From positions 5,805-69,804 of the forward strand of contig DATMRC010000112.1 of assembly GCA_035567075.1 (NCBI GenBank): a stretch of DNA of 64,000 nucleotides, read 5' to 3'. This document shows positions 56,263 through 62,418 of the stretch, in pieces. Source of the stretch: Steroidobacteraceae bacterium (GTDB taxonomy: Bacteria; Pseudomonadota; Gammaproteobacteria; Steroidobacterales; Steroidobacteraceae). The notes beneath the pieces are model-generated. The model saw only the letters and a list, made by a program, of their open reading frames with translations. It had not been told where the DNA came from and searched no databases. How positions within the stretch are numbered: the stretch's first letter is position 1; every line of letters begins with the position of its first letter. The position numbers and the translations under genes were made by a program.

Positions 56263-57123
56263 GTGGCAGGGCATGGTGCGCGCTATGCTAGGATCACGAC
56301 ACCGCGGCAACGTAGGCTTTTGAGACCAAATCAGGTGGACCACACGTTTGCGATTCCGGTATATCGCGCAGCACCGAACCTCGCCGCGCTGATCGAATCG
56401 CTGCTGGCCCAGACGCCAAGTCGCAGCGATATCTTTCTGGCGACCTCTACCCCAACGGCGGAACTGGCGGCGCTTGCAAAGCGGTACACCCTTCCGCTGC
56501 ATGTCAATCCGTTGCGCAGCGACATTGCGGCCGACTGGAATTTTGCATTTGCACAGGCCAAGAGTGCATTTGTCACCCTGGCCCATCAGGACGATCTTTA
56601 CGCGCCGTCCTATGTTGCCGAAATTGGTGGCGCGCTGCGTCGTCATCCCGATGCACTCCTCGCCTTTTGCGATTTCTCCGAGCACACGTCGCGCGGCCGA
56701 CGCCCAACCAACATCAACGTGCACATCAAGCGCACTTTGCGCCGCCGCGCCTTCGGTGCACGCGAATGTATTGCCGACGAGCTGGATAAGGTGCGCCTGC
56801 TGTCTCTCGGCAACCCCATCTGCTGCCCGAGTGTGATGCTCAATCGCAGGATGCTGACTGAATTCCGGTTTCCGGACGGGTTTAAGACCAACCTGGATTG
56901 GTCGGCCTGGCTGGAGTTGGCGCGCCGGCCCGGCGGATTTGCTTACGTGCGCGAATGCTTGGTTTCCAAGGGCGTCCACGCCGGGAGCGAGACCACGGCG
57001 ACAATCGCCAATCGAGCACGCGAGCGCGAGGATCGCGCCATCTTTGACACCCTCTGGCCTCGGCCAGTCGCCGCCACGCTGGCAACGATCTACAAGCTCG
57101 GCTATCGAGCCAACCGCTCCTAA
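56263..57123 (+). CDS. Soluble GT2-family glycosyltransferase
   Basis: TFAIPVYRAAPNLAALIESLLAQT and the DxD-like LAHQDDLY motif. No TM segments. Start uncertain: GTG 56263, or GTG 56335 just before the conserved FAIPVY. Confidence 0.75.
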   Translation: MAGHGARYARITTPRQRRLLRPNQVDHTFAIPVYRAAPNLAALIESLLAQTPSRSDIFLATSTPTAELAALAKRYTLPLHVNPLRSDIAADWNFAFAQAKSAFVTLAHQDDLYAPSYVAEIGGALRRHPDALLAFCDFSEHTSRGRRPTNINVHIKRTLRRRAFGARECIADELDKVRLLSLGNPICCPSVMLNRRMLTEFRFPDGFKTNLDWSAWLELARRPGGFAYVRECLVSKGVHAGSETTATIANRAREREDRAIFDTLWPRPVAATLATIYKLGYRANRS

Positions 57124-57174
57124 CGCTAACGCGTCACGTGCGCGCCGGGCACCGGTGAGCCCGCTGCGCCGGAT

Positions 57175-58824
57175 TCAGGTGAGTTCCTCGATTTCTTCGT
57201 GATAGCCATCTTCCGCGTTGATGCGCCAGATGTCCGCCTTGCCGCGGCCGCCATCGAGTATCGAGCTGACTGCGCTCATCGCCGCCAACATGGAGTGGTC
57301 TTGATTGTTGTAGCGGTGCATGCCATTTCTGCCGATGGGATAAAGATTCGCAAACCCGTCCAAATAGGCGCGAATTGCGCCGAAGTGGCGGTACGCGCCG
57401 AAGTAAGCGGGGTAGGCCTTCGGCACGCGAACCAGAGTGCCGTCGATGACCTCGCCGCGATCGATGAGGCCGATTTTCTCCAGTTCCGCGGCGGCAAAAT
57501 CAATGAACCGGCCGTTGTCCATGGACCATAGGTCATCGCCCTCGCGGCAGAAGTATTCGAGCCCGAGCCAGATGGTGCCGGCATCGGCAACCAGCGCCGG
57601 GCTCCAATTGTTGAAGACCTGCAGACGGCCGATTCGCACGTCGGGTTCTTGGATGTAGATCCAGTTGTCCGGCGGCATGCCATTGTCCTGCCGTGTGCCA
57701 AGATCCTCCGGCACGCGATGCCCGGTATTGCGCGAGCCGGCAGGGGAGTTCATCCGGCGCAGCAGCAATCCGGCGGTCATGAAATCGCGATAGGGCAAGG
57801 CATCCGCTATCCGCGAAATTTGCGCATCTTCGGGTCGCAAGCATTCAACCAGGCCGCGAACCGGCATGGAGGAGAGCAGATAATCGCAAGGCACGCGCCG
57901 CACCGAATCAGTCGCGATATCGAGCACGTTCACGGCCGTCACGCAGTGGCCGTCGCGTTCGATGCCGACTATGCGATTCTTAAGATAGATGTCTCCGCCG
58001 CGCGCCCGCACCTGCCTCTCGACCTCCTCCCACATCTGGCCGGGTCCAAACTTGGGATACAGAAACCTCTCGATGAGGCTGGTCTGCGTGTGTTTTTGCG
58101 AAATCTGCGCCGGGCTGCGCCATGGCCGCGCAATCGCATGCGCGATCGCCTTGGCCACCGACAATCCCTTGATTCGCTGCGCTCCCCACTCGGCGGAAAT
58201 ATCCCGGCACGGGACGCCCCAAACCTTTTCGGTATAGTCCTTGAAGAAGGTGCGGTACAGGCGGTTGCCAAATCGATTGATAAAGAAATCCTCGAGCGAG
58301 CTTTCCGGCGACCTCCTGAGCAGTTGCGCTCTACCGTAACTCAAGCCGATCTGCATCGCTTCGATGACGCCGAGATTCTTCAAGGTGGCGGTGTTGAGCG
58401 TCAGCGGGTAGTCGAAAAAGCGCCGCCGATAAAAGATCCGGGATAGGCGCTGACGAACCAACATGACGGCGTCAGGGGAGCTGGGTGCCGCGGCTTCAGG
58501 TGCCCAATCCCGCGATTGGCGCTGGTAGTTGATGCGAAGCGGTGCATCGAATGCCCGTTGGACGGCTGCGACCGGTAGTATTTCCTGCCACCAGCGCATC
58601 ACCCAGTCCGATTTCGAAAAAAATCGATGGCCGCCGAGATCCATTCGATTGCCGCGGTAATTTATGGTCTTCGAGATGCCGCCGACCTGAGTGTCTGACT
58701 CGAATACGATGGGTTTGATGCTTGAGCGGCGCAGCAATTCGAGCGCGGCTGTCAGTCCCGCAGGCCCGGCACCGGCGATGACCGCGATCTTTTCAGGGTT
58801 TTTGTCGGGTTTGCCGGCAGTCAT
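57175..58824 (-). CDS. FAD/NAD(P)-binding flavoprotein, amine-oxidase / UDP-galactopyranose-mutase-like
   Basis: [19 protein letters not shown] dinucleotide fold. VGGISKT...[10 protein letters not shown] parallels the GG...GAHIFHT pattern of Glf-type mutases. ATG 58824 has GGAAGGA upstream and overlaps the preceding gene by 32 nt. The listed start is 58908. Confidence 0.7.
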
Positions 58825-60676: not shown

Positions 60677-60705
60677 TGGTATATCTGATGTGTAAACATG
60701 TAATT

Positions 60706-62418
60706 ATGACGGAAACCAGGGCCATCGGTCAGCGCGTCATTTGGGCGGGGATGGTGCTCTCGGTGATGTGCCTTGCATATTTTTATATGCTCGATCACAT
60801 CTTGTTCTTCAGCGTGGGCTTTTCGCCGATTTTCCGATTTCTACTGATGCCGGACCTGAAGGCGGCATGGATATCTGTGGCGATATGCTGCCTGGCTGCG
60901 TTGTGGAATCGGCCGGCGCCGGTATTGCGGCTTGTAGAGGTTCTGGAAGAACGCGCGGTTTGGGTGGCCGTGGCGAGCATCGCACTATTCGCGCTCGGGG
61001 CCGTCGCCGTCTACCACAACTACCCGCTGTCCATGGACGAATACGCAGCTGTGTTTCAAGCGAAGATATTCGCTGCCGGGCATCTTTCCGCGCAGCTGCC
61101 GCCAAGCTACATCGATTGGCTCGTGGTGCGCGGCTTCAACGGCGAATTTCTCGTCGCGTCGCCCGAAACCGGCAGGGTCATTGAAGAATATTGGCCCGGG
61201 TTTGCCCTGCTGCTGGCGCCCTTCGAATATCTTCAGGCGCAGTGGCTGTGCAATGCCTGCCTCGCTGGGCTGGCATTGCTGCTCATGCATCGGATAACCA
61301 AGGAGATCACACATGAACGCCTGGCCGCGGGATGGGCATTGCTGTTCGCGCTGGCCTCCGCTGCCTTCGCAGCGAACGCCATTTCATACTATTCGTTGCA
61401 GTCGCATCTGACTGCGAATCTGCTTTTCGCAGCGCTGCTGCAGCGGCCGAATGGGTACCGGGCATTCTGCGCGGGTCTCACGGGTTCGCTGGCCCTGATC
61501 CTGCACAATCCGCTTCCGCACACGCTGTTCGCAATTCCATGGCTGCTTGCCATGGTGCTCGACCGCGGGCAGCGGCGTCTTTGCCTGCCATTGATTCTCG
61601 GCTATCTGCCGGGAATCGGTTTTGGATTGGGGTGGCTGTGGTTGCGGGCCGATATCGGATCCGCGGGCCAAACACTGTCCGGCACAAGCGGTCTGGTCCA
61701 CGGCGTTTTTACCTGGCCAACGCTAGCCGTACTCAATACGCGTGCAGCTTCCTTCGTAAAAATGTGGGTGTGGGCGGTGCCCTGCCTGTTCGTATTCGCA
61801 ATCATTGGCTGCATTCGCTACCGCGAAAACTCCAAGGTGCGCCTGCTGACGGCTTCCGCGGTCCTTACATTCCTGGGATATCTATTTGTCACCTTCGATC
61901 AAGGGCACGGCTGGGGCTATCGTTATTTTCATTCAGCTTGGGGGGTGATCCCGATCCTGGCTGGCTGTGCAATGACCAATAGACCAGTCGCGAATCCAAA
62001 AACTGCTTCGTTTGCGGGGGCGTGTGCGATTTTGAGCCTGGTGATCATGGTTCCATTCCAATTGAACGAGATCCAGCAGTTCATTTCCCAGCACTTGGCG
62101 CAACTCGGTGCTCCGAAGCGCCCGGGCAACAATGTCTACTTCATTCGCCCGAGGCGTGGTTTCTATGTGGCGGACATGGTGCAGATGGACCCTTATTTGA
62201 GGGATGCCGACTTATACCTCGCCAGCCGCGGAGGGGAGCTGGACGAGAAGATGGTACTCACGAATTGGCCCGCCGCCCGGCGGGTAAGCACCGGCCCCGC
62301 TTACGAACAATGGTACTTGGGTCCTTCGGATCAGCGCCGCGCGAGGCCCGGCGAGCGCTACCCGCGATTCGAGTTGATTGCCGAAGCTGCTACTCCTCCC
62401 AGCGCTGCGGATCGCTGA
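60706..62418 (+). CDS. Polytopic GT-C-type glycosyltransferase candidate (PMT_2/ArnT-like)
   Basis: About 570 aa. The first extracytoplasmic loop carries YPLSMDEYAAVFQAKIFAAGHL, resembling the DE-x-x-Y motif of GT39/GT83 enzymes, and 10 or more TM segments follow. Start uncertain (60688, 60706 or 60751). The listed start 60463 lies inside the divergent gene. Confidence 0.6.
   Translation: MTETRAIGQRVIWAGMVLSVMCLAYFYMLDHILFFSVGFSPIFRFLLMPDLKAAWISVAICCLAALWNRPAPVLRLVEVLEERAVWVAVASIALFALGAVAVYHNYPLSMDEYAAVFQAKIFAAGHLSAQLPPSYIDWLVVRGFNGEFLVASPETGRVIEEYWPGFALLLAPFEYLQAQWLCNACLAGLALLLMHRITKEITHERLAAGWALLFALASAAFAANAISYYSLQSHLTANLLFAALLQRPNGYRAFCAGLTGSLALILHNPLPHTLFAIPWLLAMVLDRGQRRLCLPLILGYLPGIGFGLGWLWLRADIGSAGQTLSGTSGLVHGVFTWPTLAVLNTRAASFVKMWVWAVPCLFVFAIIGCIRYRENSKVRLLTASAVLTFLGYLFVTFDQGHGWGYRYFHSAWGVIPILAGCAMTNRPVANPKTASFAGACAILSLVIMVPFQLNEIQQFISQHLAQLGAPKRPGNNVYFIRPRRGFYVADMVQMDPYLRDADLYLASRGGELDEKMVLTNWPAARRVSTGPAYEQWYLGPSDQRRARPGERYPRFELIAEAATPPSAADR

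Follow-up and report, generated by a model that had tools for sequence, protein, structure and literature searches.

A pilin-linked gene island of a Steroidobacteraceae genome encodes a probable UDP-galactopyranose mutase-type flavoprotein and is a candidate system for furanose modification of type IV pili

We analyzed a 64-kb stretch of a Steroidobacteraceae metagenome-assembled genome (MAG), referred to below as the window, in which four open reading frames (ORFs) with conserved homologs separate pilR from pilS in a type IV pilus (T4P) gene cluster. Gene order in relatives showed that these four genes are half of a single conserved island whose core tracks pilA, the major pilin gene. One of them encodes a flavoprotein that is probably a nucleotide-sugar mutase of the UDP-galactopyranose mutase (UGM) type, and two encode polytopic proteins, one with a glycosyltransferase C (GT-C) fold in its structural model and one predicted to be GT-C-like. 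On balance, we lean toward the reading that the four genes belong to a T4P-linked island for O-glycosylation of the major pilin, in which a furanose carried on polyprenyl phosphate is attached in the periplasm. Gene content, family and fold assignments, the UGM catalytic residues and synteny were all computed. The four genes and the pil genes most relevant to them are:

56263-57123, + strand: soluble glycosyltransferase family 2 (GT2) protein; PF00535 Glycos_transf_2, E 1.2e-11; divergent from pilR
57175-58824, - strand: FAD flavoprotein, 549 aa; NCBIfam PRK07208.1-2; predicted UGM-like mutase
58793-60676, - strand: 627-aa polytopic protein without Pfam or NCBIfam family; predicted GT-C-like
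60706-62418, + strand: 570-aa protein with GT-C fold, from AlphaFold2 (AF2) model and Foldseek
54904-56238, - strand: pilR, sigma-54-dependent response regulator; PF00072, PF00158, PF02954
62390-64000, - strand: pilS sensor kinase; PF25323 6TM_PilS (E 3.4e-30), HisKA, HATPase_c
43599-44120, - strand: pilA, type IVa major pilin and proposed acceptor; PF00114 and PF07963

The name pilR was given from domain content and position in the pil cluster. A preliminary description of the window, made from the sequence alone, had placed four genes in the pilS-pilR gap. All four ORFs were recovered at those positions together with the motifs quoted for them, including FAIPVY and HQDD in the soluble GT2, whose family assignment and divergence from pilR were borne out. 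Each of the four proteins has hundreds to thousands of full-length homologs at 50-85% identity; the ORFs therefore represent real genes. Their GC content is ordinary relative to the window. Database entry HWX81946.1 (VNZ02_17725) has the same sequence as the 570-aa protein, and the NCBI record of the flavoprotein (HWX81944.1) has 549 aa, the same length as here. The stop of the 627-aa gene overlaps the start of the flavoprotein gene by 32 nt, and the 3′ ends of the 570-aa gene and pilS overlap by 29 nt. The 570-aa and 627-aa genes are divergent, with start codons 29 bp apart in an AT-rich spacer (60677-60705), and the distance from pilR to the soluble GT2 gene is ~80-95 bp. Because the spacers between divergent genes are this short, promoters must overlap coding sequence.

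The flavoprotein carries the motif GAGPAG (GxGxxG FAD/dinucleotide fold), and a Pfam scan revealed only Amino_oxidase (E 1.7e-13) and NAD_binding_8 (PF13450, E 2.9e-10). It scored 754 bits (cutoff 418) against NCBIfam NF005546 (PRK07208.1-2), a "hypothetical protein" model, and is annotated in databases as protoporphyrinogen oxidase or NAD(P)/FAD-dependent oxidoreductase. A literature search on PRK07208 flavoproteins yielded nothing relevant. Searches against the PDB were performed with the single sequence and with a 26-sequence profile, and the top matches of both query types were all UGMs. The profile matched the Trypanosoma cruzi enzyme (TcUGM; 4dsg) at E 8e-17 in three stretches covering profile positions 11-513, the Aspergillus fumigatus enzyme at E ~1e-11, and the Escherichia coli enzyme (1i8t) at E 2e-5 in one stretch of ~80 residues. 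Amine, polyamine and amino-acid oxidases in the PDB aligned only at residues ~5-65, which form the dinucleotide fold. By this sequence comparison, UGMs are the best and sole full-length solved relatives of the flavoprotein. The Glf-type resemblance proposed in the preliminary description was thus upheld, and the grouping with amine or phytoene oxidases that it had named as the alternative was not found, since such enzymes match the first ~60 residues only.

The active-site residues of TcUGM are His62, Val63, Arg176, Asn201, Tyr317, Arg327, Tyr395, Arg423, Tyr429 and Asn433 (PMC4192007). HMMER alignments showed that eight of these ten are identical in the flavoprotein: H66, R217, Y390 and R400 (549-aa numbering) correspond to His62, Arg176, Tyr317 and Arg327, and Y471, R499, Y505 and N507 to Tyr395, Arg423, Tyr429 and Asn433. 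All eight are invariant across 26 flavoprotein homologs, and the GGH loop and the diphosphate-holding arginines and tyrosines of the same published residue list are kept. Like the eukaryotic-type UGMs (4dsg; A. fumigatus 3ute), the flavoprotein gives a profile match over the full length and has the GGH histidine loop and the C-terminal GRxGxxRY..NQDHS motif. It differs from them in showing little identity outside the conserved motifs, in being ~40-70 aa longer, and in its uridine-site motif YTEKVW, which looks bacterial-type instead. This segment corresponds to Y-T-E-K-x-W, which we take to be the uridine-binding region of bacterial UGMs (the Klebsiella pneumoniae and E. coli enzymes), and therefore points to a UDP-sugar substrate. 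The flavoprotein is probably a UGM-type nucleotide-sugar pyranose-furanose mutase; we infer this activity, and the identity of the sugar, from the alignments.

To place the four genes in context, we used the window's proteins to map ~50 related loci, 46 of them taken from GTDB species representatives (Steroidobacterales/Nevskiaceae-type MAGs throughout) and the others from further contigs. The commonest and most complete order was pilS, the 570-aa gene (reverse orientation), the 627-aa gene, an optional GtrA-like gene, the flavoprotein gene, a GtrB-like GT2 gene, methyltransferase genes, a 125-aa EamA-like gene, the soluble GT2 gene (reverse orientation), pilR, a tetratricopeptide repeat (TPR)-sulfotransferase gene, and pilA. 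In the window, the genes running from the GtrB-like GT2 gene (51573-52820) to the EamA-like gene (47701-48072), together with the 691-aa gene, lie beyond pilR; in most relatives the GtrB-like synthase, methyltransferase and EamA-like genes sit inside the pilS-pilR gap. Since relatives keep both gene sets in this gap, the two apparent modules of the window are halves of one system, and the preliminary description's treatment of the four genes as an independent second module was not sustained. The constant core consists of the 627-aa gene, the optional GtrA-like gene and the flavoprotein gene; the last follows the 627-aa gene directly or via the GtrA-like gene, present between them in many relatives, in 38 of the 45 loci obtained from GTDB. 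The GtrB-like gene is usually next after the flavoprotein gene, and the 570-aa gene is usually divergent and upstream. Island content varies strongly among close relatives.

Several loci separate the core from the pilS-pilR gap. Loci L032 and L035 have no such gap, pilS abutting pilR, and their core trio is placed between pilR and pilA; the 627-aa gene, flavoprotein gene and pilA follow one another in this order in L034 and L040. The cultured methanotroph Methylomicrobium lacus (L050, GCA_000527095.1, WP_029646568.1) has the order pilin, 627-aa homolog (27% identity to the window protein), GtrA, flavoprotein (54%) and a FimB/TfpX-like gene. In L055, a contig where the set lies beside pilMNOPQ, the order is 627-aa homolog, GtrA, flavoprotein (62%), pilin, GtrB-like (44%) and 570-aa homolog (41%). 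A 627-aa-family gene adjoins pilA in L032, L034, L040, L050 and L055; in the window it lies in the same pil cluster, ~15 kb from pilA. These findings demonstrate that the core set tracks pilA and not the pilS/pilR gap.

Some further observations were made on these loci. In M. lacus (5330-12759), a FimW_N-domain gene lies divergent and upstream of the pilin gene, and FimB (TfpX/TfpY-like) comes after the flavoprotein gene; flanked in this way, the unit resembles a pilin accessory cassette. Loci L025 and L037 (labeled Acidobacteriota) and L043 (labeled Bacteroidales) carry a Steroidobacteraceae-type island, with 47-53% identity in the 627-aa protein and, in L025 and L037, 81% identity in pilS. 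Mis-binning or mislabeling probably accounts for these three, rather than horizontal transfer. In L035 (11778-19418) the genes for the flavoprotein, pilB, pilC and pilD are each split over several frames, which are probably long-read assembly indels and not true pseudogenes.

The 627-aa protein was said in the preliminary description to belong to no recognized family, and this held: neither it nor 10 divergent family members matched any Pfam or NCBIfam model. An exhaustive profile search gave 2286 clusters at 50% identity, of which 1186 were at E < 1e-30, with members nearly all ~630 aa long. By sequence, the protein founds a large family without annotation. Its AF2 model (predicted local distance difference test score [pLDDT] 79.5, predicted TM-score [pTM] 0.82) shows ~13 membrane helices, short helices after the first transmembrane helix (TM1) and a mixed alpha/beta C-terminal domain; the N-terminus is basic and is predicted to lie on the cytoplasmic side. 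A Foldseek search with this model gave nothing at E < 0.05, and the only matches with probability >0.4 were PIGU (0.89), ALG12 (0.85) and EmbB (0.44). Transporters lead the list by E-value, yet with probability 0.05-0.2 and TM-score ~0.1; assignment to a transporter family, which had been raised as an alternative, was thus not borne out, the high-probability fold matches being of GT-C type.

Residues D37, Y41, D56, G139, R154, H187, P188, W243, W259, Q320, R323, W326, W511, R541, C585, L617 and C620 are invariant in the 627-aa family down to 26% identity. D37 and D56 lie just past TM1, and C585 and C620 in the C-terminal domain of ~150 aa. This placement of two Asp and two Cys residues is consistent with a GT-C-like enzyme whose active site would face the periplasm. 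The 627-aa protein is a predicted GT-C-like periplasmic glycosyltransferase, an assignment that we rate as no more than likely, and a candidate pilin transferase. A hidden Markov model (HMM) search of the 627-aa and 570-aa families against PDB sequences gave nothing useful. Profile-profile comparison of the 627-aa, 570-aa and 691-aa proteins detected no relation; the three are therefore not detectable paralogs. Across relatives the 627-aa protein is much more divergent than the flavoprotein, the pattern to be expected when a transferase faces a variable acceptor and its neighboring enzyme has a fixed small-molecule substrate.

The preliminary description had ascribed a PMT_2/ArnT-like loop to the 570-aa protein. 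The ArnT likeness stood at the level of fold, and membership in a named sequence family did not: no Pfam match, including PMT_2/ArnT, was found, and the match to NCBIfam NF047440 (LA_3751/LA_3752 putative glycosyltransferase) was weak (28 bits, cutoff 200). The AF2 model (67 sequences; pLDDT 74, pTM 0.78) had ArnT (5f15) as its top Foldseek match in the PDB (E 1.5e-6, probability 1.0, TM-score 0.48/0.51). The other matches were PglB/STT3, ALG12, ALG9, AftA, DPY19, Pmt4, PimE and EmbA/B/C, i.e., GT-C enzymes only, twelve of them at E < 1e-3. The modeled 570-aa protein thus has a GT-C fold. Its loop contains YPLSMDEYAAVFQAKIF, and M110-D111-E112-Y113 are invariant in the 67 homologs.

The remaining island genes and the nearby pil genes of the window are:

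38745-39662, - strand: pilD, T4P cluster
39701-40921, - strand: pilC, T4P cluster
40945-42690, - strand: pilB, T4P cluster
44450-47648, + strand: TylF-type O-methyltransferase and 746-aa AT3-SGNH acyltransferase, between pilA and the island
47701-48072, - strand: EamA/SMR-like four-helix membrane protein, 123 aa; PF00892, E 1.2e-5
48076-48780, - strand: S-adenosylmethionine (SAM) methyltransferase; PF13489
48752-49504, - strand: SAM methyltransferase; PF13489
49501-51576, - strand: 691-aa polytopic protein without Pfam match; weak NF047510 match
51573-52820, - strand: GtrB/DPMS/ArnC-like polyprenyl-phosphate GT2 with C-terminal transmembrane helices; PF00535, E 5e-24
52883-54790, - strand: TPR-sulfotransferase fusion; PF13469 (E 2.3e-45) and several TPR repeats

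The best NCBIfam matches of the GtrB-like GT2 were AglJ (2.4e-35) and PpgS (6e-22), and its best solved relatives were DPMS (5mlz, 2.8e-9), ArnC (9bhc, 2.3e-8) and GtrB (5eke). The 123-aa EamA-like protein, 79% identical by tblastn to the 125-aa island gene of L001, is a candidate ArnE/F-like subunit of a lipid-sugar flippase and may substitute here for the GtrA-like gene. The 691-aa protein, present in the island of ~ten relatives (e.g., L010, L016, L024, L027, L028 and L037), is possibly a third periplasmic transferase. Both SAM methyltransferase genes lie within the pilS-pilR island in relatives. The TPR-sulfotransferase gene separates pilR from the remainder of the island here, and its homolog lies between pilR and pilA in most relatives; to judge from this position, the sulfated substrate may be pilin, a glycan or another molecule linked to T4P. 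The TylF-type O-methyltransferase and the AT3-SGNH acyltransferase are candidate enzymes for adding O-methyl and O-acetyl groups to the island glycan.

Homologs of the soluble GT2 occupy the same position in relatives and have 262-266 aa, so its true start is probably TTG 56320 or GTG 56335. No match to it was found in many loci that retain the 627-aa and flavoprotein genes; it is the least conserved of the four genes and is dispensable. Comparison with the PDB gave no informative match, and a label of galactofuranose (Galf) transferase is therefore unwarranted.

A scan for sigma-54 promoters revealed one good site, TGGCATAGCGCTTGCT (44189-44204, - strand), which matches the consensus at 10 of 11 positions and lies ~70 bp upstream of where pilA starts; it fits control of pilA by PilR/RpoN. 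No good site was found upstream of the four island genes, and PilR control of the island is thus unsupported.

From these assignments we infer which sugar is the substrate, that its donor form is a lipid-linked furanose, in what order the steps run and that pilin is the acceptor, as follows. The UGM-type flavoprotein would convert a UDP-pyranose to a UDP-furanose in the cytoplasm, with galactopyranose (Galp) as the default guess and N-acetylgalactosamine (GalNAc) or arabinopyranose (Arap) as possible sugars. The GtrB/DPMS-like GT2 would load the furanose onto undecaprenyl phosphate (Und-P), and a small membrane protein, GtrA-like in most relatives and the EamA-like 123-aa protein here, would aid presentation of the lipid-sugar at the periplasmic face. 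The 627-aa protein, paired with the mutase, would be the candidate pilin-specific transferase; the 570-aa GT-C protein and the 691-aa protein may extend or branch the glycan; and the soluble GT2, methyltransferases, sulfotransferase and AT3-SGNH acyltransferase may diversify the product. The more specific proposal, that a polyprenyl-phosphate hexofuranose (e.g., Und-P-Galf) is made by a hitherto unrecognized bacterial branch of eukaryote-like UGMs together with a GtrB-like synthase and used by the 627-aa family for periplasmic O-glycosylation of pilin, is tentative, and we would not yet bet on it. A literature search on galactofuranose-bearing pilins yielded nothing relevant.

Several points weigh against pilin furanosylation by this island. 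In the flavoprotein, Arg67 stands in place of TcUGM Val63, the Val that follows the catalytic His in eukaryotic-type UGMs, the equivalent of Asn201 could not be placed in the alignments, and the Pfam GLF domain of bacterial UGMs (PF03275) was not found at E <= 0.01. The PIGU, ALG12 and EmbB matches of the 627-aa model have TM-scores of just 0.27-0.36 and E-values >0.09. A distance of 12 kb separates pilA from the four genes in the window, whose 64 kb contain no GtrA gene. No GtrB-like gene was found near the trio in L032, L034, L035, L040 and L050, so in these five loci the synthase would need to be encoded elsewhere. A literature search found no lipid-linked hexofuranose monosaccharide donor, and synthesis of Und-P-furanose would therefore be a step without precedent. 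The reading is drawn from sequence and model computations.

Three other explanations were weighed. The island could modify another envelope glycan (O-antigen side chains, exopolysaccharide or capsule) in the manner of Gtr systems, the pil locus being a mere hot spot for variable islands. The GtrA/GtrB/GT-C make-up indeed matches that of O-antigen side-chain systems (PMC11127046), and the variable content of the island and its 12-kb distance from pilA in the window would also fit. However, the core trio stands beside pil genes in every fetched context, the methanotroph trio lies between the pilin gene and the FimB/TfpX-like gene, the L055 set brackets the pilin gene beside pilMNOPQ, and no O-antigen or capsule export genes were found in the screened loci; we consider this explanation unlikely, while allowing it some weight. 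The flavoprotein could alternatively be a redox enzyme (a DprE1-like sugar or lipid-sugar oxidase, an amine oxidase or a desaturase), with neither mutase activity nor furanose involved. Its Amino_oxidase match and its oxidoreductase annotations point in this direction, and DprE1, the flavoenzyme partner in the pilin system of Pseudomonas aeruginosa Pa5196, is an oxidase. Against this, UGMs cover the whole length of the protein whereas amine and polyamine oxidases reach residue ~65 only, family members show no variation at the residues specific to UGM chemistry and UDP binding, and the island has no DprE2-like reductase partner. A purely redox role is accordingly improbable.

A third explanation keeps the mutase and moves the use of its product to the cytoplasm: the soluble GT2 would build an oligosaccharide on undecaprenyl pyrophosphate from UDP-furanose in Leloir fashion, and the 627-aa protein would be a flippase, a polymerase or a PglL/TfpO-like O-oligosaccharyltransferase. 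To our knowledge, all characterized bacterial Galf transferases use cytoplasmic UDP-Galf; the soluble GT2 gene adjoins the flavoprotein gene here, and the missing precedent for lipid-phosphate-Galf counts in the same direction. However, many loci with the 627-aa and flavoprotein genes showed no match to the soluble GT2; scans of the island revealed no initiating phosphoglycosyltransferase, Wzx, or Wzy_C/O-antigen-ligase domain; GtrA-like and GtrB-like partners indicate monosaccharide-phosphate lipid donors; and MurJ-type flippases reached a Foldseek probability of only 0.1-0.2 for the 627-aa model. We regard cytoplasmic use of the furanose as quite unlikely, and periplasmic O-glycosylation of the pilin remains the reading that we lean toward.

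Glycosylation of pilin affects the antigenicity of the cell surface and susceptibility to phages. Few enzyme systems for it are known (TfpO/PglL-type oligosaccharyltransferases and TfpW); the island, if the proposal is true, would be a third route and the second independently evolved route to furanosylated pili. A misannotated flavoprotein family and a polytopic family of ~2,300 clusters would gain a function, and a lipid-linked hexofuranose, if that is the donor, would represent a novel type of activated sugar. The logic of lipid-furanose plus GT-C enzyme seen in mycobacterial arabinan and Pa5196 pili would then extend to hexoses. Because the module is present in cultured M. lacus, the hypothesis is directly testable.

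Known systems resemble the island to different degrees. Gtr systems (GtrA/GtrB/GtrC of Shigella and Salmonella; PpgS/Rv3632/Rv3779 of mycobacteria) share with it a GT-C enzyme, a GtrB-like synthase and, when relatives are counted, a GtrA-family protein; of this three-component set, the window has the GtrB-like and GT-C members, and relatives supply GtrA. Gtr systems add pyranoses to O-antigen or arabinogalactan, whereas the island encodes its own mutase and is linked to the pilin locus. The GT136 pentofuranose three-component systems of Citrobacter youngae O1/O2 (PMC11127046) also resemble the island. In these, a GT-C enzyme adds the furanose from Und-P-furanose outside the cytoplasm and an auxiliary cytoplasmic enzyme fixes the identity of the sugar, as would be the case in our proposal. 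The GT136 systems differ in their start from phosphoribosyl pyrophosphate (PRPP), MATE flippase, epimerases and O-antigen target; none of those proteins occurs in the island.

The closest parallel is D-arabinofuranosylation of pilin in P. aeruginosa group IV strains Pa5196/PA7 (PsPA7_6245-6249), in which the GT-C enzyme TfpW is encoded next to pilA together with FimB-like TfpX, a GtrA-like protein (6247) serves as a hub with ArnE/F compensation, and the donor is made by a PRPP-dependent synthase (6246) and DprE1/E2 (bioRxiv 10.1101/2020.04.19.049825). The TfpW protein has a C-terminal TPR domain and a DDX motif in loop 1, according to the same source. The 627-aa protein, compared with TfpW through these published features, has no TPR match in Pfam, a mixed alpha/beta C-terminal domain in its AF2 model, and single Asp residues in loop 1 (GDAQ...TDLY) rather than DD. 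The Pa5196/PA7 system has one polytopic enzyme, the island up to three. Its UbiA-type PRPP-dependent synthase and DprE1/DprE2 are replaced in the island by the UGM-like mutase and the GtrB/DPMS-like GT2, which implies an origin of the sugar from a UDP-sugar, probably as a hexofuranose; no member of the DprE1/DprE2/PPPRS D-arabinofuranose pathway was found among the scanned island genes of the window. In other respects the two sets correspond: both have a polytopic GT-C-type enzyme (predicted in the island) linked to pilA, the GtrA-like and ArnE/F-like partners have counterparts in the GtrA-like protein of relatives and the EamA-like 123-aa protein, a FimB/TfpX-like gene follows the module in M. 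lacus, and in our proposal a polyprenyl-phosphate furanose donor is likewise made in the cytoplasm with the aid of a flavoenzyme. The preliminary description had suggested an echo of Pa5196 through unrelated enzymes, and synteny with pilin genes in distant bacteria backs this suggestion. The best reading is that each role of the Pa5196/PA7 system has an island counterpart made of unrelated proteins and that the island is, by analogy, its functional analog.

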